The notes beneath the pieces were generated by a model. That model made no database searches, was not told the DNA's origin, and was given only the letters and a program-made list of their open reading frames with translations. This document shows, one piece after another, positions 1,905 through 27,159 of a DNA stretch of 27,159 nucleotides. Each line of letters begins with the position of its first letter. Positions within the stretch are counted from its first letter, which is position 1. Origin of the DNA: Catajapyx aquilonaris (taxonomy: Eukaryota); contig KZ538271.1 in NCBI GenBank assembly GCA_000934665.2, positions 62,001-89,159 on the forward strand. Direction: 5' to 3'. The position numbers were made by a program, and so were the translations under genes.

Positions 1905-2099
1905 TGTGTGGATGAAGAAGGACTCATGAAGGATGCGGAGGAGATTCCAGATCGATTGGCTTGTGTCAGGGAAAATCTGACATGGAAGAACCTTCAGATG
2001 AACTTTGACCATGTGGGCAAGGCCTACTTGTCCCTCTTCCAGATTGCCACTTTTAAAGGCTGGATGGACATCATGTACGCTGCCATTGACTCCAGAGAG
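1905..2099 (+). CDS. para: Nav1/para exon, domain III turret and P-loop (selectivity-filter Lys)
   Basis: AG at 1903-1904 and GT at 2100-2101; 195 nt. Encodes CVDEEG...[33 protein letters not shown]; the K of DEKA is present. Confidence 0.95.
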
Positions 2100-2159
2100 G
2101 TAATGTCTTCTTCCACCACTGTCCATCAGAAGTGTAAACAAACTTATTGCTTCTTGCAG

Positions 2160-2408
2160 AACGATTGTCTGCAACCAATATACGAGACAAACCTCTACAT
2201 GTATCTCTACTTTGTCTTCTTCATCATCTTCGGATCGTTTTTCACACTGAATCTGTTCATTGGAGTCATCATCGACAACTTCAACGAGCAGAAGAAGAAG
2301 GCAGGGGGGTCCTTGGAGATGTTCATGACTGAGGACCAGAAGAAATACTACAATGCCATGAAGAAGATGGGTGGAAAGAAGCCTCTCAAGGCTACTCCCA
2401 GGCCTAAA
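2160..2408 (+). CDS. para: Nav1/para exon, IIIS6 and III-IV linker (MFM inactivation gate)
   Basis: AG at 2158-2159 and GTGAGT at 2409; 249 nt. Encodes ...[71 protein letters not shown]. Confidence 0.95.
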
Positions 2409-2574
2409 GTGAGTCCCATGTAGTATAAATCAGAAAGGTTGTTTGCATGTCCAGGCTGTCCACTTCTGTACTACTGAGAGTACTGGAACTTGGCACATCT
2501 CATTGATGATTCAGGGAAAAGTGCACTTTTTTGAAGTCTACAATAACAGTTGCTCTTTTATCTTCTCCACACAG

Positions 2575-2845
2575 TTCAAGCCACAGGCCATGGTGTTTGA
2601 GCTGGTGACCAACAAGAAGTTTGACATGATCATCATGTTGTTCATCGGAGTCAACATGCTGACCATGACCTTAGACCACTACCAGCAAAACGAAATGTGG
2701 GAGACTAGCCTGTACTATCTGAATATGGGCTTCATCGCCATCTTCTCGTGCGAGTGCTTCCTGAAGGTGTTTGCACTTCGGTACCACTACTTCAAAGAGC
2801 CGTGGAACCTCTTTGACTTTGTTGTTGTCATCCTGTCTATCATTG
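2575..2845 (+). CDS. para: Nav1/para exon, IVS1-IVS3
   Basis: AG at 2573-2574 and GTAAG at 2846; 271 nt, ending in phase 1. Encodes [24 protein letters not shown]...[19 protein letters not shown]. Confidence 0.95.
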
Positions 2846-2923
2846 GTAAGATCTTTTTTTTTGTTTGCAGCGCATGTTTGGGGAGTGAGACATACTTTAA
2901 TTTTTTTAAATATAATTCTGCAG

Positions 2924-4080
2924 GTCTGGCCTTGAGTGATCTGATTGAGAAGTACTTTGTGTCTCCCACTATGCTTCGAGTGGTGAGGGTGGCCAAAGTG
3001 GGTCGTGTGCTCCGTTTGGTGAAGGGTGCCAAGGGAATTCGAACCCTACTGTTTGCGTTGGCCATGTCCCTTCCTGCACTGTTCAACATCTGCCTCCTGC
3101 TCTTCCTGGTCATGTTCATCTTCGCCATTTTCGGCATGTCCTTCTTCATGAACGTGAAAAACAATGGGGGATTGGACGACGTGTACAACTTCCGCACATT
3201 TGGCAAGTCCATGATCCTGCTATTCCAGATGTCCACGTCTGCAGGATGGGCCGAAGTGCTGACTGGTATCATCAACGAGGAGGATTGCGACCAGCCTAAT
3301 CCGGACATGGGCAGTCCGGGTGACTGCGGGTCGGCTGTCATCGGCATCACCTTCCTGCTGTCGTACTTGGTCATCAGCTTCCTGATCGTCATCAACATGT
3401 ACATCGCCGTCATCTTGGAGAACTACTCCCAGGCGACTGAGGATGTCCAGGAAGGTCTGACTGATGATGACTACGATATGTACTACGAGATCTGGCAGCA
3501 GTTCGATCCGGATGGTACCCAGTACATCCGGTACGACCAGATGTCCGATTTCCTAGACGCCCTGGAGCCTCCACTTCAAATACACAAGCCCAACAAATAC
3601 AAGATCATCTCAATGGACGTGCCCATATGCAAAGGCGACATGATGTTCTGCGTGGACATGTTGGATGCGCTCACGAGAGACTTTTTCGCGAGGAAAGGCA
3701 ACCCGATCGAGGAGGTCGGGGAGGTCGGGGAGGTCGCTCCGAAACAGGACGCACCTGGGTACGAACCAGTGTCTTCTACGCTGTGGAGGCAGCGTGAGGA
3801 GTACTGTGCACGGTTGATCCAAAACGCATGGAGGAAGCACAAAAGGGCTCAGCAAGAGCAAGGTGGTGGTGGTGGTGCAACCGGTGGTGGTGGTGGTGGT
3901 GATGCTGAAGGTGGTGAGGATGCTGGTTCTGCAGCATCTGCATCAGGAGTCGACGATGATGGTAAGCATCACCAGACTGCGGTGATGGTTGAAAGCGACG
4001 GATTCACCACAAAGAATGGACACAAGGTGGTCATCCACTCCCGATCTCCCAGCGTCACTTCGAGGTCAACTGACGTTTGA
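2924..4080 (+). CDS. para: Nav1/para terminal coding exon: IVS4-S6, EF-hand-like region, IQ motif, Gly-rich tract and C-terminus
   Basis: AG at 2922-2923. Contains [16 protein letters not shown] (IVS4), FQMSTSAGW (A of DEKA), the IQ motif IQNAWRKHK and the para-type ending [25 protein letters not shown] at 4078-4080. Confidence 0.97.
3861..3900 (+). repeat. Interrupted (GGT)n repeat encoding poly-Gly in the Nav C-terminus
   Basis: Two ggt runs encoding GGGGG-AT-GGGGGG. Confidence 0.9.
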
Positions 4081-16336: not shown

Positions 16337-18497
16337 TTATTATTCCCCTGTGCCCGAAAGCTTGCGGGGAAGACCTCCCATACATTTACAAACCACTTAA
16401 ATCACTGTCATTTATAGTACAATATCACAGAATTTCAAGGATGCTACTGCTAAGGAAAGAAAGTATATATTTGATGAACGGCATGAATAGGCATAGATGC
16501 AAAGAGTAAATGTACCTTATCAGGAGGAAGCTTATTTGGAATACCTCCCAATTTATCCCTTCTCAATGCACGGAAAAATGGACACTCATAAATGAGATGG
16601 AAAAGAGACCAGTTGACATTGCTATTGCAGAGCGAGCATGGATTATCCCGATTTTCGGGAGGGAAGCTCAGTTTATAATCTTTAACGTAAAAAGAATAAG
16701 AATTTTAACTAAACCTTGTCGATTTGTGAAGTCCCCGTTCAACAACCACTCTTTCCAATCAAAACCTGACCTCCAGAACATATTCCCTGGTCGCTCTTGC
16801 CCATTTCAGCTCAACCTTCGCATCAATCATCCAGCACAGAGCTATCTTACTCCACCTGTCCACAGGTAATGCTATTGTTTTTACCAGAAAGTTCAGCAGT
16901 ACGTATGTTGCTTAAAAATGTTGAGATGCAACCTTCCTGTCTCCATCCGTACAAAGTATCCAGCCGTATTTCTAGGGAGGGCCAAAAAAAATTTAATGAA
17001 ATAAGTAATGATAATGAATAAGAAATGAGTAATACTATGGGTCCATCAAGCCTTCGTAATGAAAATGGGCTAATTGTCCTGGGAAACACAATTGCGGGTC
17101 TTGGTATATACCACTGCTGCAGATACTCTGGCCAGACTTCTTGTTCCTCAACATTATGTTTATTGTCCTTACCCCCACTTCTATGAGTTTTTACTAAAGA
17201 CCAGAATTTCGCCATGTCCGAGGTGTCTAACAACTGCTGGATTTTAACACTGTAGATTTTTTTTTTCCTTCGCCTGAAGCTCTTTCTTGTACAACTGGGC
17301 TGCATTGTATATTTTTGTCGTAGAACCTCGGTTGGGTCAGCTTTCCATGTCGCCAGGGCTTTGAGCACGAGCCTTTTATCATTCCGTAATTTTGCGTCAT
17401 ACCAATGAGCTCGAGATTTCCCGCGCTCGCAGTGAAGGATAATTGAAATTCTGAATTATTCCCGTTTCACTCAATAGACCATTAACGGACATAATTTGCG
17501 GCCTTGAGGATTAATCGTTATATCTCTCGAATTTTTCATACTTTGCAGTGAAGAGACCTCGATAGGATCGTATATTAAACTTTGTGATTCAGATCCTATT
17601 CGAGCATTGAAATCTCCGGATAGAATTATATCATACCCTTCATCCAACCAAGGAGTAATAGCTTCTTCCAATTGTAACAAACAATCATCATACTTTTTAG
17701 ATGGATTGATCAGATTGGATTGAGAAATCTTCCGACAGCGACAACCTTGCTTCAACCTTGCTGCATTGCCCATCAGTGCCTTCTTGGCCTTAAAAAATGT
17801 GCAGCGCAGTATAATTGGGCGGATATGGCCCTGCCGAAGCCCTCCTAAACGGTGACATCTCTCCACTGATAAAATGGTAGTCTCTGTCGATGATGCCAAA
17901 GTGACGGATGACCTTCAATGCTGTTTGGCCCATGATTCTTGCCCATCTGGCCCCACCCCAAACAGGATCACATTCTTGCGTCGGCCTCTGTCCTCCATTT
18001 CCGCCACCTTGTGCTCCAGCGCTGCCATTTGACTCTTTACCGTCTTCAGATCTTCCTCCATCGATCCCAGCCGGACATGGACCACTGCCACTTGCTCCTG
18101 GATCGCCTCAGTCACCACTTTGGAGATCTCACTCTTCATCATTCTTAGGACCATTCTCTCTTCTACGCTGTAGTAAAACTTCTATCTCCTCGACAGAGGC
18201 CCCCATTTTCCTAGCGAAATGTCGAGCCCTTATCACTAGCTCTGGAGTCGCAGCCGATTCTCAGAGCATTGAGCTGCTCAATCTCTGCCTTCAGCCTCTC
18301 AATTTCTGTCTTGGATTCGGCCAACTTGGCCCTCAGTTCTTCATTCTTGTCCTGAAGCTTGTCCCACTTTGCCTCAACAATCTGGAGCTCTGCTGGTACC
18401 ATGTCTGCTGAGGTGTCGGCGCTACGTCCAGACATATTATCTCTCTGCTCTCTGATCCGACCGAAGGCTGACTGAAGAGTGAATGCAAGCTCCTTCT
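16287..18497 (-). mobile_element. APE-type LINE, internally deleted (ORF1, partial endonuclease, no RT, CCHC C-terminus, (TTA)n tail), with 13-bp TSD
   Basis: ORF1: coiled coil, EDRGRRKNVILFGV and ERCHRLG..RPIILRC motifs. Endonuclease: GDFNARIG...SRDITINPQGRKL. Linker: WYD...FWSLVK. C-terminal CSLC-x8-HLIYEC. TSD GAATATGGGAATA at 16274-16286 and 18498-18510. Confidence 0.85.
18211..18435 (-). CDS. 74-aa coiled-coil ORF upstream of LINE ORF1
   Basis: ATG at 18435 to TAG at 18213-18211. Heptad pattern KWDKLQDKNEELRAKLAESKTEIERLKAEIEQLNAL. The ORF1 ATG follows after a 4-nt gap, at 18206. Confidence 0.5.
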   Translation of the reverse strand: MSGRSADTSADMVPAELQIVEAKWDKLQDKNEELRAKLAESKTEIERLKAEIEQLNALRIGCDSRASDKGSTFR

Positions 18498-18599
18498 GAA
18501 TATGGGAATACGGTGTATGTAGCGCAAAAAGATGGTGATGATTATTTCTCATTGAAACCAGTTGCATCCATATTTGTGAGCGATATACACGGTACAGTA

Positions 18600-18679
18600 T
18601 ACCTTTTGTAGACCCTATTTTAAGCCCAAGTGTAGGACTACTGAGGTAATGAGATTTTCTTAAAAATGATAGTGACATA
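18600..18679 (+). repeat. Dispersed repeat copy 1 (copy 2 at 20828-21017 is interrupted by a ~108-bp insertion)
   Basis: taccttttgtag.ccctattttaagc...gcccaagtgt.ggactactgaggtaatgagatt is shared by both copies. Confidence 0.8.
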
Positions 18680-19862
18680 GAAGCATAATAAACAGTTCCG
18701 ACATCAGCTTCAATTGTCCTGTCTGAGTGAGAGGCAGGGAAGTATGTCAAAAGAGACAGGGATTATGTGATTCCAACATTTCTTTAACAAGATAATGCAT
18801 GCCAAGTACTATAATATGAAATTGACACATCGACAAACGGACCTTCAGTTCCTGAATTTCTGTCTCCAGGATCGTCCTGTGGCCGTTAGCATCATCGAGC
18901 TCCTTTGACAACTCCCCATTCTTTTTGCTGCGAGAGATTGATTTAAAACCAGCTCCTGCTGTAAGAGTGTATAACCGTTACGAACCTCAACTGCTCCATG
19001 AGGCTATCCACTGATGGTTGCACTGTGTAGGTTATCCTGCAGTTCTCCTGCAGCGACTGAATTGGTGACTGCTCTGAAGAGGAGTTGATCATAAGCACGT
19101 TTTTACAATTTAACTCTTACCATCTGATACCTTTGAGCACTTGAATGAAATTAATATACCGTACCTAACTCTTAGACTTCTCGTGCACTTTTTCAGCTAG
19201 TGAGTTTTCTAGCCCTTTTATAAAACACCGGTACAAAATTATGATTCTTTCAGGTTTCACAGGTTTGGCGTATTCTTAAAATTTAAAATTTGGCGTAGGC
19301 CTACTTCAGACCTTGCAAAAGGGCAACATGAGTCTCCTGGATGCGCCTGGATGGTCAGCCTGAAAGGTAATGATACACACATTAGATGTGATGGCCCATG
19401 CTTAGAGATTTGATTTATGCATAGTATGAGATGTAAAACTTCATTTCACCTAGTCCAGGCATGGACAGATAGGTGACATCATCTGACAGACATACATCAT
19501 CATAAGTCAGAACATTATTTTGAGCTTTCTGTCTTGCAAATCCTTTTGCTTATGTCTTATACAGGGTGATTCTCCCAAATGGAAATCCAAACATTTCCCA
19601 ATAACTTTTTAACTATGGTATGGTTTCCGATTGACATGTACTTCACTTGTATCATTGGCAAGCCCGCTGGCAGCTCCCTGAACCATGTCACTTTCTACCC
19701 CAAAAATATTCTTTTTTTTGCAGTTTATACCTAAAAATCAGTTCAGTTTCCGACATTATAAGTAGGCGTGTAAGTAGGGAGCCCTTGTTCCGAATTTTAA
19801 GTTCAACTTGTAGCATGTTTTTCACAGACACTGTTTTGACTTAAGATTCACTACCCAACCAC

Positions 19863-20294: not shown

Positions 20295-20826
20295 ATCTCT
20301 GGCCGCCCCTAGGCATAACCTTATCTGCCGCCCCCCCACTCCCGTCTGTTTTTTAGGTCCGAGATTGGGGAAATTCCTCAATTTGCGGATTTCAAAGCCA
20401 AATATCTCGAAAATTGTTGTTTCAAATTATTTTGAAATTTTGGTGATTCAAGTACTTAGCTAAATCCAGTGAATTTCATCTTGGAAGTTATACATTTTCT
20501 ATGCCGCTCCAAGGTGAATCGGCCGATGCCCAGACAAGTAAGGGTGAAAGTCGCCTGTAGATCCTGCACAGATCCCCACTGTCCTATAGGGGGGAAGGGT
20601 GCACGCGACTTTCGCCTTACTGGTCTCGAGCATCTGGCGATTCATCTTGGGGCGGCACATGAACGGTGACGCCATAAAGTCTTGCATAAAGTACATATTT
20701 TCGCACGCGTCAAAATTTTCTCCTCGATAAAATTATCTTGACTCTAGGGAGGCAAATTTTGCCGCCCCCTAAAATTTGCCGCCCTAGGCACGTGCCTACT
20801 TGGCCTCATTGGTAATATGTCACTGG
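20295..20826. mobile_element. Non-autonomous DNA transposon remnant (hAT-like) with GCCGCCC subterminal repeats and an internal hairpin
   Basis: gccgccc(c)taggca repeated near both ends; the right end reads gcctacttggcctcattggtaatatgtcactg; internal inverted repeat at 20502-20657. Confidence 0.5.
20502..20657. repeat. ~53-bp imperfect inverted repeat with a ~50-nt loop
   Basis: 20502-20554 is reverse-complementary to 20605-20657, with a few mismatches. Confidence 0.9.
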
Positions 20827-20853
20827 GTACCTTTTGTAGGCCCTATTTTAAGC

Positions 20854-20961
20854 ATGCATTGAAAATGAAAATTTTTCAGGAGCTTCGCTGTCACAGTCTT
20901 ACTAAAAAGGGGCTCCATGGTTTGGGAACCACTGCTCTAGTAGTCTAGTTCATACCGTAAT
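20854..20961. mobile_element. hAT/Charlie-like MITE fragment
   Basis: GGTTTGGGAACCACTG at 20919-20934 is the reverse complement of the CAGTGGTTCCCAAAC hAT TIR; it interrupts dispersed repeat copy 2. Confidence 0.55.
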
Positions 20962-21353
20962 GCCCAAGTGTTGGACTACTGAGGTAATGAGATTATCTTT
21001 AAAATGATACTGACATAATTATAAACATAAACGTGACCTACACGTCAAAAATTACCTCTGCAATTTTGTTGTTATTTGATAGCTACCATTGGATACTGTG
21101 AAGGTAATCGTCATCAACTGTTAGATTTGCATATAAAATTATTGCATATAAATGTTTTTCAGTGCTCAATATTGTATTAAACAGCTGATCAGTCATAGAA
21201 TTGCAAAGGACATTCGCCAAGGTGTAATTTTCAGTTAACTGCATGAAAAACCCTAACTTACCTGTTGAACTTCTAATTGAACTATGAAGATTTATGTGCG
21301 GCCTCATAGAAATTTGCACACCCCCATTATGGCAAAAAAAACAGTGTTAACTG

Positions 21354-21748
21354 TGTGACCTTCGTAGTTAGGTCGCAACTACTGTTGGGGATGGTTCCAA
21401 ACAAGTAGACTAGGGTTCAACTCAGGATTTCCATTTAATGTCACTGCCATTTTACAAACAGGGTGAGCGGTTGATTTGGAGGTAATAGGGGTTGTTCAGA
21501 TGGAGGGGGAAAAGTAGACGGAAAAAGAGGCATGGCCAGTGGCGGCAGGTGAGCACCACCAAAGGCCTCGATTGGATACAAGGAGACGGTTTATATAGGA
21601 AAGTTTGATGCATTGTGGGTATGTACAACTGAAGATAAGATGACATCGCAGCATGTACTTGCTCTTCCGAGTCAAACAGAAAAGGTCAGGTTAGATGGAT
21701 AGGGGATAAGACCTGCACAGTTATCTGTCCAAATTTTGCAAGGTCACA
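21354..21748 (-). repeat. 3' LTR of element A (395 bp)
   Basis: TG...CA ends with 9-bp terminal inverted repeats; minus-strand TATATAAA at 21597-21590 and ATTAAA at 21439-21434. Confidence 0.92.
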
Positions 21749-22042
21749 CACCCCTATGCTCAGATATCGCTAACAGCTACAAGGATAAGGAAGGCATAAA
21801 TATATACATTTAACACCCAATCTTTCCAATCGACCCGACCCGGTATAGTTCTCCGACGGCCGGTTCACTTGGGCTCACATCCCAAACAATATTCAAAGAA
21901 ACTACTGACTCAACTAAAAAAAGCAGTTCACTCTTATCTTGTCAAACCATAAGAAAATGGGGCCAGTAGATTATACGAACACAGTCACATTCACCCGGTC
22001 GTCACTCACTTCCCCTGAAGATAACACTTTGTCCAGGTTCAC

Positions 22043-22692
22043 TTAGGGCCATTCATCTTCTTCCAGAAAGGCCGATGAGTAGGTGCCTTCGGGCAGCGTG
22101 AGGTCAATGACGGGGCTGTTCTCCGATGCTAAAGGCGGCTGCATCTCATCGGCTGCAGGGCTGTAGACAGGGGAAGATGGCCTCGGTGAAACGTCCTCTC
22201 CGGGGCTAGATGGTGGTCCGTCAGCGACTAGAAGCAACGGACTGCAGGGGTTCCACCGGGTTTGGTCGAACATGCAGAATGATGTGGCGAAAGGTCGTAC
22301 CACGCCGGTGGGTCCGTCAGCAACAGGCATCACTCCAGCATCACTCCCGTCAGCAATTGACGGGTGGGGTCGATATGTAGATCCCAGCTACACATGAAAT
22401 CCAGCCCCAGTACAATTGGCAGTGCGTCTTCTTGTAGCACTGCAAAAGGCGTCTGGAAAACGGCACCAGCCAGACGAATGGGCAATTCAGTCCTCCCAAT
22501 GGGGTGAATCGCGTGGTTCTCTGACGACACCAACACGGCGTCACCAAACGGCAGTATAGTTGGTTGGAGCCACTCTGGGATGGCCTGGATGACGCTGTTT
22601 GACACTGTTGATAGGACCGCCCCGGGACTGATTTGTCCTATCCACATCTCGTAGACAGCTATCGGCAGCGTGGCTGCAGTCATCATCAGCAT
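22043..22692 (-). pseudogene. Retropepsin-like pseudo-protease with Pro/acidic tail, frameshifted by an 11-nt duplication
   Basis: ISPGAVLS replaces IDSGAVSS; HPIGRTELPIRL and PIVLGLDFM are retropepsin hallmarks. Removing one copy of the GCATCACTCC repeat (22327-22347, 11-nt period) joins ORFs 22330..22692 and 22043..22333 into one 212-aa ORF. Confidence 0.8.
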
Positions 22693-23884
22693 CGTGGTTG
22701 TATTCAGGGCCGCTGGCCATATTCCGGGTTGTAACGGAAAGTTCTTGGATGATGCCCCAAAAGCAGTTGGAACTCTTTCTAATCAGGAGTCAAACGAGCG
22801 AGTGATTATACAGCACACACACAACACATTTTTATAGGGTGGGTAAATTGGGACCCTATTGCCCGATGGGAAAATATCTCCCTTGTCGAATGGTTCCATC
22901 ATCTGGGGGGTCCAATCACTTTTCCNTTCCACGTCTCGAGGCGCTACCTCAACGCGGACGTTAAACTGCACACTTTGCAAGTCCCACTTCACGGGGCCCG
23001 CTTTACAGTACAGGGGAGGTCCCAAAAAAATCAACTCCGGTAACTAGTCCGAATTTTTTTTCCACTTGGATACCGTACACCAGTACACTCACGTACAAAA
23101 GTTTTCCCCTCTAACACAATTTTTCTTAATGCCTCCATCCCCCCTTTTTTGTTAAGTAGCCTATCTCCAGGTACCAGCACGGCTCGTCGTTACAGCGGGC
23201 TGTTGGTCCAATGGGGTCAGTCGTTCCAGTGGTATTGGTACTCCTTTCCTCCATATTTTCTCCATCGTAGGGTTGATGGTTGTAGCGGGGTTGAGCACAG
23301 CCATCAGTATGGCCCTCGTACAGGACCCTCTCGGTTCCGGTGGGAGACTATTTGTCCTCCCAGTTGTACGGGGTCATCGATGTCCTCTTTCTTCGGTTTA
23401 TGCAAGATTGCACCACCAGGAGACGGACAGGATAGGATAGGTTAGAGCAGTAAAGCTCGACTTAGGTCAAAACACAGCAATAGTGCAGGACCGGGAAAGG
23501 ATTTGCTTGTTCGGCAAAATCCAATTGGGAATAGGATTAAAGGGGGAAGGTTAAAAGGTCTGGGAGGTGCTGGGTATGCACATACTCCACTTGACGAAAG
23601 GAAGGGTATGTGTGAACGGGGTTTAGGACACACATGGTTAGGAAAGTGAGACGATAAGACTCACTATTGCTGCATATCAGGATAATACAGACGTGGGGTT
23701 CTTTCCCGTGTTAGGATTGCACGGCGAACCTCCGATTTCCCCAATGCGAGGCAAACACTGGGTCAAATGACTTAGTGTGACAATAGTACACACAGTCCAT
23801 AAGGCAACCACGTAGTGCGACACGACTACGACACATGTCCAATGCACAACAACGTGGGGCAGAGACATGGAACCTAAGTGTCAT

Positions 23885-23902
23885 ATCCCACTTCTGACAC
23901 CA
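23885..23902 (-). promoter_or_regulatory. Primer-binding site of element A, tRNA-Leu(CAA) type
   Basis: TGGTGTCAGAAGTGGGAT, 2 nt inside the 5' LTR; complementary to the metazoan tRNA-Leu(CAA) 3' end ATCCCACTTCTGACACCA (from recall). Confidence 0.85.
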
Positions 23903-24642
23903 TTTGTGACCTTCGTAGTTAGGTCGCAACTACTGTTGAGGATGGTTCCAAACAAGTAGACTAGGGTTCAACTCAGGATTTCCATTTAATGTCACTGCCA
24001 TTTTACAAACAGGGTGAGCGGTTAATTGGGAGGTAATAGGGGTTGTTCAGATGGAGGGGGAAAAGTAGACGGAAAATAGGCATGACCAGTGGCGGCAGGT
24101 GAGCACCACTGTGACCGAAACGGCCATATAGCGTGAGAGGGCAAAAGGGGTAAAGGCCAAAGATGACACGTGGGTTAAAGCTCAAGTTCTCCAATGTATT
24201 TAACAACAGCCAAGGCGACAAAGTGAGAAGGGTAGAAGGGAAATAAAATGAAAAAAGGGAAAGGAGGGAGTGACCAGTGGCCTCACAGTTGAGTGAGACC
24301 AAAGGCCTCGATGAACAGGGGACAGGAGTTTATATAGATGGGTGAAATGCATTGTGGGTAGGGTCTGGTACAAAATATGACATAGTGATGTACGTGGTAC
24401 ATTCCAAACCAAAAGTAAAACTGTCACATACCCCCGTGCCACGATCGAACCATGGCGGTAGTCCAAGGCAAAACAAAAGTCAAACGGAAACAAAAGTTCT
24501 TGAAGGGAGTGAGGAGGACAAAACCAAAAGAAACAGGCCAGGCAAAGACAAACACTGACAGCCTGTACAAAAAGTAACTCAAAACAAAACTGTCCCTTCA
24601 AGGAAAAACTTGAAGAACTGTCAATTCATCATAACACACCCA

Positions 24643-25206
24643 TTAGGTGTAAGTCGCCGCACACACATTCTCGTCGGTGATGGTATCGTTGATGGTGCAA
24701 GCATCTCCATAGTCTATCCATCGATCGTTGGGGTCGTCAGCAGCTCCATCTTCAGATGATGGTAGGGAGTCAGGGATGCTCCCAAAAACTTCCAAGGGCA
24801 CGTGGAAAGGGACGAGGGCAGGATGAGATCCATGTCCGTTATAAACGGTCCCGGTGAGCATGAGTTGGTTGTAGTCGATGGAGCATCGCATGGACGCTAG
24901 AAAGTCAGCAGCCAGAACCACAGGCAAGACGGAAGTACACACAACCAGGAGGTGTAGTTGGATCTCTGCTTCGCCTACGACCACAGTCAGAGTGGTCCGT
25001 CCCAAAGGGTAGATTGGATGGTCATCCGCCACACGCAAGGTCGTCTGAGGGTCAGGGACGAGAGGTGGTCGATCGTCTACAGGAATAGTGTGCCACACCC
25101 TCAGGTCAATGGCTGATGACACAGCACCACTGTCGATCAAAGCGGGCCATGTAGTTCCACATATGCGAACTGGAGCTGTTGATGCTGTCAGCACGTACGA
25201 CGGCAT
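24643..25206 (-). CDS. Stand-alone retropepsin-type aspartic protease (187 aa) with acidic C-terminal tail
   Basis: ATG at 25206 in a good context (agcATG). Active site ALIDSGAVSSAID; flap LRVADDHPIYPLG; PVVLAADFL motif; stop at 24645-24643. Not fused to Gag or RT. Confidence 0.85.
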   Translation of the reverse strand: MPSYVLTASTAPVRICGTTWPALIDSGAVSSAIDLRVWHTIPVDDRPPLVPDPQTTLRVADDHPIYPLGRTTLTVVVGEAEIQLHLLVVCTSVLPVVLAADFLASMRCSIDYNQLMLTGTVYNGHGSHPALVPFHVPLEVFGSIPDSLPSSEDGAADDPNDRWIDYGDACTINDTITDENVCAATYT

Positions 25207-26026
25207 GCTGGTTGCTGTGGGATAGGCTCGAAGTCTAGAAAAGAGAATGGTGAGGTCAAAAAAGCGTGTCACCAAATGGCGATGTGCGGCTTGGAGTACG
25301 TCCTTTTTGTAGAGGCAACGCAAAGCACGATGGGTAATCACCTCAAAAATTATCACACGCACAACCACAGGGTGGTCAAACCTGTAGAAGTGCACAATAA
25401 TTATATTTGACCAAGAATGGAGTCCCATTCTTCCCATCGACACTACCTTGGAACAGACGGCACCGGGTGGTTCATGACCCCGGTCTCCAACTGACGTCTT
25501 TAGATAGGTTTTAATGATGAGGTTAAAGCGGTCATCTCCATTTACAGGGATGCCTTGACATACCCATTCAATGCATAATTGACGATAAGCTTATGGCCTT
25601 CTACACACGTTGGTATACAACTATACAAGGACGGAATAAAATGTACTTAGGAGGGGCGCAGTATTAGACCAATTCCACTAGTCTGGCCATACTGCCATTA
25701 GTAAACATTCGTTACACGGTAGTATTTCGTCGTCTAATGTTTACTAATCCTCCATCACTCAATATTTAAATAACCCCTCTCGAAGGTCACGGATTGCAGC
25801 GGTTAGTAGTTACGTCTAGGGGCACATCAGATAGTCCGGCCTCGCAGGAACAGATCGTATCCAGACATCCAGAAGAACTGTTCGGATTGGTTCGGGATGG
25901 CACATCCGGTTGGACCGGTAGTATCCACAGGCGTTGTCCGTTTTCACCGGAGCAAGGTTGAGGGAGTATACAAAACGCACACACACACAACCGGTCGTAA
26001 CCGTAGGATTCCTCTTCGTATTTGGT

Positions 26027-26088
26027 TGTTCGTATCCGTATCCGTAACAAGGCTGTTCGTATCCGTATCCGTAACAAGGCTGTTCGTA
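26027..26088. repeat. 27-bp tandem repeat (2.3 copies) in the leader of element B
   Basis: TGTTCGTATCCGTATCCGTAACAAGGC twice, plus a partial copy. Confidence 0.9.
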
Positions 26089-26598
26089 ATAATTTTTTCT
26101 TTTGCTCGCACAAGGTCAGGGAAGATAAAGGGAAAAGGAGAGGGGGGCATGATCTCTCCTCTGTAGGTTAATTTGAAGGATGGGTTCACGTGTGGGGAAT
26201 AACACGGATGCTTAGGGAAAGGATATAGACGTAATGTACCAGGATCGTACATAGTCGTAATAATGGAACACCGGTATGAGAGCTTGAGAAATGCTCGTCC
26301 AGTGAAATGTAAGGGAAAAACGAGTTGTGCAGGGAGTTGCCATATGCTGGTAGGTATGCACACTCTAAGTGGCCGTGAATACTTGTTACATAGCCACAAC
26401 CAGACTCCACTTGACCGAAGTCGCGAGTCCACAAGTGTCAATTCCGTAAATACAAGGAATGACGTCAATACAGGACAGGGGAACAGGGAACGAGTCCACA
26501 AGACTCGCGAAGGGGTACGTGCGCCATGCACCACCCACAATTTGGAAATAAGAAATAGGAGCGAGCGAGTAGGAAAACCGGAGGGAGGGACATTTCAG

Positions 26599-26616
26599 AT
26601 CCCACTTCGGGCGCCA
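26599..26616 (-). promoter_or_regulatory. Primer-binding site of element B, tRNA-Lys-like 5' part
   Basis: TGGCGCCCGAAGTGGGAT, 6 nt inside the 5' LTR. The first 11 nt match the tRNA-Lys(UUU) PBS TGGCGCCCGAA. Confidence 0.75.
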
Positions 26617-27010
26617 CGTTTATGTGACCGAAACGGCCATATAGCGTGAGAGGGCAAAAGAGGTAAAGGCCAAAGATGACACGTGGGTTAAAGCTCAAGT
26701 TCTCCAATGTATTTAGCAACAGCCAAGGTGACAAAGTGAGAAGGGTAGAAGGGAAATAAAAGGAAAAAGGGAAAGGAGGGAGTGACCAGTGGCCTCACAG
26801 TTGAGTGAGACCAAAGGCCTCGATGAACAGGGGACAGGAGTTTATATAGATGGGTGAAATGCATTGTGGGTAGGGTCTGGTACAAAATATGACATAGTGA
26901 TATACGCGGTACATTCCAAACCAAAAGTGAAACTGTCACACCACCAAAGGCCTCGATTGGATACAAGGAGACGGTTTATATCGGAAAGTTTGATGCATTG
27001 TGGGTATGTA

Positions 27011-27159
27011 TCATCAGTGAATCAAGTATTGTCCCGCCATGCGGGTTACAGTCTGGCCAGGATAATGGGTCTGTCAGACAGGCGTTCCGTTCGCTCGTCG
27101 CCCCGCTCGCTTCGCGCGCATGGGTCACACTGGCGAGCGTTGCGCTCCGCTGTGCCCTG
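27011..27159. mobile_element. Unclassified insertion interrupting the 5' LTR of element A (runs out of the window)
   Basis: Identity with the 3' LTR of A stops abruptly after gggtatgta (27010). GC-rich sequence follows, with gctcgcttcgcgcgc motifs. Confidence 0.5.

Follow-up and report, generated by a model that had tools for sequence, protein, structure and literature searches.

Several types of non-autonomous long terminal repeat (LTR) retrotransposon have been described. Terminal-repeat retrotransposons in miniature (TRIM) and large retrotransposon derivatives (LARD), with size limits of <1 kb and >4 kb, respectively, have no coding capacity. The set reported from Culex consists of non-coding LTR elements without a master copy and with tandem repeats inside; TR-GAG elements are short (<4 kb) plant elements whose single open reading frame (ORF) is gag, with protease-like candidates excluded by definition; 934 of the 2322 Brassicaceae ATHILA elements are gag-protease-only; and 28 of the 115 non-autonomous families of sugar beet keep only GAG/PROT remnants. 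Here we analyse a 27,159 nt stretch of the Catajapyx aquilonaris genome (GenBank assembly GCA_000934665.2, contig KZ538271.1, positions 62,001 to 89,159; below "the window", whose own numbering is used throughout), which holds two LTR elements, A and B, with one retropepsin-like frame each. A sequence-only reading of this DNA had proposed that they represent an element type that encodes nothing except a stand-alone protease (PR), and had set them against non-autonomous types said to be either non-coding or gag-containing, a statement that is too narrow in view of the gag-protease-only Ty3/gypsy elements of plants. Literature searches turned up no LTR element with a protease as its sole ORF, and a PR-only family may stand in Repbase, Dfam, GyDB or preprint supplements. 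The account that we favour, and to which we give about an even chance, is that A and B are related low-copy non-autonomous elements of Ty3/gypsy type, in which the protease is a remnant no longer needed for transposition.

Like the plant gag-protease-only elements, A and B keep a Ty3/gypsy-type protease and lack reverse transcriptase (RT), RNase H and integrase, and they have intact LTRs, a putative primer binding site (PBS) and a putative polypurine tract (PPT), mobilisation in trans being presumed. Unlike the ATHILA and sugar beet types they have no detectable gag, an animal host and a very low copy number, and at about 2.8 kb they are much shorter than the ATHILA derivatives (about 8.8 kb); a gag region in the leaders of A and B may have decayed beyond recognition. 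With TR-GAG elements they share a short length, non-autonomy and a single ORF derived from an autonomous ancestor, but that single frame is a protease and not gag. The LARD, TRIM and Culex elements resemble them in having LTRs, PBS and PPT (both putative in A and B), a non-coding internal region and no identifiable master copy, and the Culex set also in its internal tandem repeats (a 27-nt unit in B), whereas LARD and TRIM elements differ from A and B, which are of intermediate size and carry a long protease frame. Insect 412/mdg1 elements of the Ty3/gypsy group have homologous proteases, TG...CA LTR ends and the 4-bp target site duplication (TSD) found around B; these autonomous elements differ from A and B, which have no gag, RT, RNase H or integrase.

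Two nested elements with a common layout

Elements A (21354-27010) and B (24110-26940) both read along the minus strand, with B inserted in the 5' LTR of A. On these two points our analysis departs from the sequence-only reading, which had recognised the two elements. Most of its description of their architecture is borne out: both have the order LTR, PBS-like tract, non-coding leader, a frame for the protease only, short acidic tail, PPT-like tract, LTR; the internal lengths are 2156 nt in A and 2194 nt in B; the LTRs of each pair, given as about 2.5-3% different, are 97.8% identical, with a Kimura two-parameter (K2P) distance of 0.0225; and B has an intact TSD, CCAC, at 24106-24109 and 26941-26944. 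In A 264 of 270 aligned LTR positions are identical, and in B 311 of 318, with seven transitions and one indel (K2P 0.0225). Because CCAC flanks B and occurs once at the matching place in A's intact LTR, B inserted into the LTR of A with a 4-bp target duplication. A duplication of this length fits the Ty3/gypsy group.

All four LTRs start with TGTGACC and end with GTCACA on the plus strand (repeat search and coordinate check), and thus have the canonical TG...CA ends, and each contains TATATAA on the minus strand. The DNA similarity between A and B is limited to one 107-nt LTR patch around TATATAA, 73% identical, whose conserved blocks are the TATA box and the sequence just downstream of it. 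PBS-like TGG... tracts of 18-19 nt lie 2 nt (A) and 6 nt (B) from the 5' LTR; they have GAAGTGGGAT in common and differ in their acceptor-stem parts. A tRNA scan found no tRNA genes in the window. Short G-rich purine runs that resemble PPTs adjoin both 3' LTRs on the minus strand, and Rfam gave no match over 20500-27159 at E <= 0.1. At about 2.8-2.9 kb the elements fall between the TRIM and LARD limits. In A the 5' LTR breaks off at 27010; about 272 of 395 positions are present, and approximately the first 123 nt (element orientation) are missing. A high-copy repeat abuts the cut-off LTR (see below), so that the TSD result applies to B.

The protease frames and their surroundings

Three kinds of search recognised no gag, RT or integrase in either element. 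Of 13 frames compared with Pfam, the two protease frames alone gave any match; when 44 retroelement proteins, among them polyproteins of 1573 and 914 amino acids, were compared by tblastn, the matches in the window were confined to 22297-22689 and 24739-25281, the two proteases; and no CCHC knuckle is present in any sense frame of A or B. In a tblastx comparison the protease is the only segment that A and B share. Because the Pfam, tblastn, CCHC and tblastx results are all negative beyond the protease, we conclude that both elements have no detectable gag, RT, RNase H or integrase.

The leaders show no similarity to one another as DNA or protein. The longest sense frame of the A leader, 86 codons, was matched by 762 of 2000 shuffles. 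The B leader includes a perfect tandem repeat (26027-26088; 27-nt unit, 2.3 copies by Tandem Repeats Finder), and directly after the PBS it has a stop-free frame of 216 codons (25944-26594, minus strand), a length reached by none of 2000 shuffles. This frame has no relatives by Pfam or by word-based protein search (0 of 243 candidates scored) and no usable match in Atlas, where its recognition value of 1086 is within the range of shuffled proteins; with no relatives and so low a score, it was treated as not coding. Frames of the opposite strand are open here as well (26203-26649, plus strand, 148 codons).

Identification of the protease depended on sensitive comparisons. Both frames fall below the Pfam threshold (B, Asp_protease_2, E 0.018; A, Asp_protease, E 0.065). 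A phmmer search with the 264-amino acid B ORF against 1.84 billion representatives gave 34 matches, the best at E 5.5e-8 and none below 1e-10; 31 of the 34 carry retropepsin Pfam families, and RVT_1 follows in two, in one of them after a zinc knuckle. A search with a profile of these sequences reached 19 long polyproteins with E values down to 1.6e-26, of which 18 contain RVT_1 and 17 contain rve; the only one with a retroelement name is a thrips "Pol polyprotein from transposon 412". B gives a match to 17 of these 19 polyproteins, and A matches the protease region of three. Because the profile matches are RVT_1/rve polyproteins, the protease is of the Ty3/gypsy kind; the assignment of the elements to Ty3/gypsy (Metaviridae) is made from protease homology alone, and the pol order PR-RT-RNase H-integrase is not present in either. 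By tblastn the homology to polyproteins passes beyond the B protease core into the linker (about 24740-24800) and reaches upstream to about residue 53. In a word-based protein search with the B ORF, none of 763 candidates of similar length scored. A metagenome locus returned by a single-protein query was discarded as a chance match, as it is an alternative frame of a contig with bacterial-looking long ORFs. We note that among the database retropepsins P0001, P0002 and P0010 (support 100/97), together with P0025 and P0032, form a well-supported clade whose members come from short metagenome contigs. Where the usual linker and RT would follow the protease, P0001, P0002, P0010 and P0025 have a charged, low-complexity tail, which is reminiscent of A and B, and P0032 (112 amino acids) is too short to show any tail.

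Each element has one retropepsin-like frame, and the two are in very different states. The description of a single protease ORF per element holds for B, whose 315-codon open frame was reached by none of 2000 dinucleotide shuffles, and not for A, where open frames of 150 and 114 codons are separated by one break at about 22330-22347. This frame change coincides with an exact 11-nt tandem duplication, and the two frames overlap there. The D-S/T-G-A motif of retropepsins is present in B (DSGA), but A has ISPGA in its place, without the catalytic Asp. The Gly of the hydrophobic-hydrophobic-Gly motif before the C-terminal strand is shared by at least 90% of 36 aligned sequences and by A (VLGLDF); in B it is replaced by Ala176 (VLAADF). 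Both tails are acidic, as had been stated, with Asp/Glu against Lys/Arg counts of 12 to 1 in B and 14 to 3 in A. The further statement that the two proteins align past the protease core finds no statistical backing: 1841 of 2000 shuffles scored equal or better, and the A string on which it drew (LTGVMPVADGP...) crosses the frame break of A. Similarity of the two tails was therefore rejected.

AlphaFold2 models the B protease with block-mean predicted local distance difference test (pLDDT) values of 79-97 for residues 81-200 and 72-85 up to residue 220; residues 1-80 stay under 52, the first 77 codons being modelled as disordered, residues 231-240 have a value of 52, which falls further from residue 241, and the tail is disordered and acidic from about residue 226. 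Foldseek comparison of this model gave 54 matches at E <= 0.001, led by DDI1 RVP domains and the protease of human immunodeficiency virus 1 (HIV-1). The best structural match is to the RVP domains of DDI1/DDI2 (Foldseek E 1.8e-7, TM score 0.71-0.80 when normalised to target length); the B frame differs from DDI1/DDI2 in that its sequence relatives are retroelement proteases, in that it lies between LTRs flanked by a TSD, and in having no ubiquitin-like domain. A two-copy model of B residues 78-225 scored 0.82, against 0.35 for the best control, with residues 100-106 at the interface, contact agreement between runs of at least 91% and partner pLDDT of at least 84. The homodimer mark applied here is reached by 21 of 30 solved homodimers and by none of 23 solved monomers. 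The B protease is thus predicted, in silico, to have a retropepsin fold and to form a homodimer; the dimer result may reflect model memory, because retropepsin dimers have already been solved.

Relationship, copies and constraint

Over 119 amino acids, with one gap, the protease of A shares 32% identity with that of B (E 2e-15). A maximum likelihood tree built from 36 protease cores joins the two in a clade (support 98/91), and judged by sequence they are sisters. The outgroups in this tree were chosen by similarity to B, and the databases hold no elements from the host. The end branch of A is very long (3.33, against 0.39 for B and a median of 0.98). In a 102-codon gap-free alignment of A and B the identity at first, second and third codon positions is 44, 58 and 25%, respectively. 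Because synonymous sites are saturated and the protein is conserved, most of the divergence between A and B took place under protein-level constraint, which fits the unalignable leaders and LTRs.

These same comparisons bear on the idea that A and B arose independently and fairly recently, by deletion, from two different autonomous gypsy-type elements that live or once lived at other places in the genome, their common layout being a coincidence promoted by a recurrent hot spot of deletion behind the protease. Some database proteases (up to 35-37% identity) are about as near to B as A is, the acceptor-stem parts of the two PBS-like tracts differ, and loss of RT to integrase that leaves gag and protease is recurrent in the plant Ty3/gypsy elements; the extension of polyprotein homology beyond the B core into the linker and upstream to about residue 53 is also what a piece of pol would give. 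We nevertheless judge two such deletions to be quite improbable. Either element implies a minimum of two events, one that removed gag coding and one that removed RT to integrase, with similar boundaries and sizes as the outcome, and the leaders were already non-coding when the LTRs of each pair were identical. In addition, in the contigs described next there is no depth excess over the LTRs and, among the pieces and ends listed (641 pieces and 135 ends are outside the list), none runs from protease into RT or gag.

The contigs come from four runs of one sample, possibly that of the assembly itself, and contain 70-73% of the stretch's sampled words; they were compared at >=80% likeness, their depth is a rough guide only, and the list examined covers 32 of 673 pieces, 24 of 159 loose ends and 40 of 190 variant places. 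Contig depth suggests about 1-3 copies and not a many-copy family: summed over the elements it amounts to about 1-3 times the value of the unique flank, and the LTRs show no excess (for example, 42-128 over the elements and 38-47 in the unique flank in X1). No autonomous partner with similar LTRs was found in the contigs at the likeness used. The list has no joints; none of its pieces or loose ends leads out of the protease to RT or gag, and none of its loose ends falls at a protease boundary. Two A pieces are diverged, at about 92-93% identity, one with 41 other letters and 25 gap letters over 594 nt, the other with 18 and 3, respectively, over 236 nt, and from these diverged pieces it follows that there is at least one further A-like copy or haplotype with the same junctions.

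An artificial, chimeric join of unrelated repeat pieces in the assembly is highly improbable as the source of this arrangement. The A leader does include a single N at 22926, and the contigs of all four runs lack 5 nt at 22922 at full depth, so the assembly is probably slightly wrong near 22922-22926; furthermore, the A/B junctions 24109/24110 and 26940/26941 are bridged by none of the contig pieces listed. Against such a join stand the exact 4-bp TSD, which restores A's LTR sequence, and the colinear, 97.8% identical LTR pairs. Moreover, listed contigs (from runs that are possibly the assembly's own sample) bridge the internal junctions: in A those of flank with LTR, 3' untranslated region (UTR) with frame end, frame start with leader, and leader with LTR, and in B those of LTR, 3' UTR and tail, of protease with leader, and of leader with LTR.

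The listed variants are suggestive of recent constraint. Twenty-seven of the 40 places fall in frames; downstream of the protease-proximal Met 13 are synonymous and seven non-synonymous, where 28.6% synonymous would be expected under the observed transition bias (P ~8e-4), and upstream of it one is synonymous and six are non-synonymous (Fisher P 0.029 against downstream). Two of the listed variants are stop codons within the N-terminal extension of B, its first 77 codons. The only in-frame indel listed is of 3 nt, and internal indels outside the frames are of 5, 1 and 2 nt. In these listed variants, which may be alleles or paralogues, the pattern suggests constraint on the protease and tail and not on the first 77 codons of B. 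Six of the listed variant places lie within 69 nt at 25162-25230, just upstream of and at the start of the B protease core, on a contig path that has about half depth in three runs; this path could be a second haplotype or a conversion from a diverged copy.

These variants are one argument for a long-lived PR-only lineage in which selection has kept the protease frame, the idea put forward in the sequence-only reading, which we consider possible and somewhat doubtful. Its product would start near Met78 of B, or the ATG of A, and would be a free homodimeric retropepsin in B and a catalytically dead partner in A, acting on or hindering the processing of a helper's Gag or Gag-Pol to the benefit of the element or the host. 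Several observations agree with it: the layout is shared by lineages whose synonymous sites are saturated and whose first and second codon positions are conserved; A and B form the well-supported clade noted above; their protease frames are open and their leaders are not; 13 of 20 variants are synonymous in the protease and tail against one of seven upstream, where the two stop codons lie; the sole listed in-frame indel preserves the frame; the diverged contigs share the junctions of A; and the confident domain of the B model begins at residue 81, just after Met78, the dimer model, perhaps through memory, standing well above its controls. On the other side, the A frame is broken and without the catalytic Asp, and in B an Ala takes the place of a near-invariant Gly. 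Upstream of the protease frame there are 17 ATGs in A (19.0 expected from base composition) and 19 in B (17.7 expected), with no depletion, and because of these, ribosomes that scan a full-length RNA would rarely reach the frame; translation of the protease would need a spliced or internally started message. The depth is only about 1-3 times that of unique sequence, the synonymous excess, drawn from 40 of 190 variant places that may be alleles or paralogues and perhaps come from the assembly's own sample, is no more than suggestive, the word-based search found no related protein of similar length, and the A and B tails are unalignable. The more specific proposal of an old lineage with a stand-alone retropepsin as its only gene, selected after the loss of gag and the other parts of pol, is rather unlikely; its product, a soluble protease free of any Gag tether in B or a catalytically dead dimer partner in A, would alter the timing of a helper's Gag/Gag-Pol cleavage, and a role of the A/B protease in helper maturation or host defence is pure conjecture.

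We return, then, to the favoured account of a protease remnant in non-autonomous elements. A and B would have descended from a deleted gag-pol element and kept the parts that act in cis, namely LTRs with TGTGAC...GTCACA ends, the conserved patch with the TATA box and putative start site, and the putative PBS and PPT. Because they have no gag, RT, RNase H or integrase of their own, they would be copied and integrated by the proteins of a helper element. The coding remnant would be the protease segment of pol with the first part of the protease-RT linker, which would match the plant gag-protease-only deletion type with a gag part that no longer codes. Protein-level constraint acted on the protease during most of the period since A and B split; it would now be a leftover, dead in A and still intact-looking in B, presumably with no present role. 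In favour of this account are the lost Asp, frame break, long branch and few polyprotein matches of A, the Ala176 of B and its disordered first 77 codons with two variant stops, the undepleted upstream ATGs, the low contig depth and the plant precedents. Five observations are uncomfortable for it. The leaders were already non-coding when the elements inserted (their LTRs are 2.2% diverged) while the protease frames were open, which is odd for a leftover. The two elements have the same boundaries and nearly equal internal lengths (2156 and 2194 nt), though all but the protease and the 107-nt patch is unalignable, and at second codon positions 58% identity is kept, against 25%, a saturated level, at third positions. 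The synonymous excess (13:7 in protease and tail against 1:6 upstream) points to recent constraint. Finally, the B model is a confident one, and its two-copy form, whose interface includes active-site residues, passes as a homodimer, possibly through model memory.

Feature coordinates, neighbourhood and implications

The positions of the parts of both elements are collected in Table 1.

Table 1. Parts of elements A and B in window coordinates (3' and 5' refer to element orientation)
Feature	Positions	Strand	Remarks
A 3' LTR	21354..21748	-	395 nt; direct repeat with 23905-24076; TATATAA at 21597
A PPT-like purine tract	21749..21761	-	reads ...AGCATAGGGGTG; weak; directly 5' of 3' LTR; putative function
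A acidic Pro/Ser-rich tail frame and stop, 95 codons	22043..22330	-	other frame than protease core
A exact 11-nt tandem duplication at frame change	22327..22347	.	Tandem Repeats Finder: period 11, 1.9 copies, 100% matches
A protease-like frame from ATG, 120 codons and stop	22330..22692	-	ISPGA at 22618-22632; tblastn matches to database retropepsins
A non-coding leader	22693..23884	-	longest sense frame 86 codons; no Pfam match
A PBS-like tract TGGTGTCAGAAGTGGGAT	23885..23902	-	2 nt inside 5' LTR
A 5' LTR, internal side of B insertion	23905..24109	-	direct repeat and alignment
A 5' LTR beyond B insertion	26945..27010	-	72-nt repeat with 21554-21625, 99% identity
B TSD CCAC, left copy	24106..24109	.	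single CCAC at matching place in A's intact LTR
B 3' LTR, 319 nt	24110..24428	-	paired with 26623-26940
B 3' untranslated stretch and PPT-like tract ...CACGGGGGTA beside LTR	24429..24642	-	
B protease ORF, 264 codons from first ATG	24643..25437	-	open 315 codons up to 25590
B protease landmarks	Met78 25204-25206; DSGA 25123-25134; VLAADF 24901-24918	-	
B leader	25591..26597	-	216-codon stop-free frame and 27-nt tandem repeat
B PBS-like tract TGGCGCCCGAAGTGGGATC	26598..26616	-	6 nt inside 5' LTR
B 5' LTR, 318 nt	26623..26940	-	TATATAA at 26848
B TSD CCAC, right copy	26941..26944	.	

Beyond the truncated 5' LTR of A, from 27011 to the end of the window at 27159, lies a high-copy repeat with a summed contig depth of about 1250-1700, against about 25-47 in the unique flank. 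Contigs have loose ends there at 27006-27007, 27030, 27065 and 27097, and the window stops inside the repeat. At the other end of the window, positions 1905-4080 of the plus strand contain the last exons of a para/Nav-type voltage-gated sodium channel gene with Ion_trans Pfam matches; these exons run from the end of repeat III through the inactivation-gate linker and repeat IV to the C-terminus and the stop codon, and the best solved relative of the channel is the cockroach NavPaS (E 5e-169). A and B follow about 17 kb downstream, among abundant repeats. At 16847-18762 on the minus strand are frames of 147-202 codons that resemble the remains of a non-LTR retrotransposon, one of them a coiled-coil frame. 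These frames include an SGDFNARIG motif, which we take, from its resemblance, to be endonuclease-like; Pfam gave no retroelement family for these LINE-like frames (16.8-18.8 kb).

The present case consists of two nested copies and a few contig variants, and is a lead and not an established family. A type with the protease alone, in an animal, would extend the known non-autonomous classes (TRIM, LARD, TR-GAG and gag-protease-only). Premature activation of the protease alters particle maturation in retroviruses. If the protease of these elements is constrained, it would raise the question of whether a free or dead retropepsin supplied in trans can alter the maturation of a helper's particles; and if a PR-only lineage were real, its members would be parasites that tune their helper or, should the sequence be single-copy and held by the host, a protease-based restriction factor.

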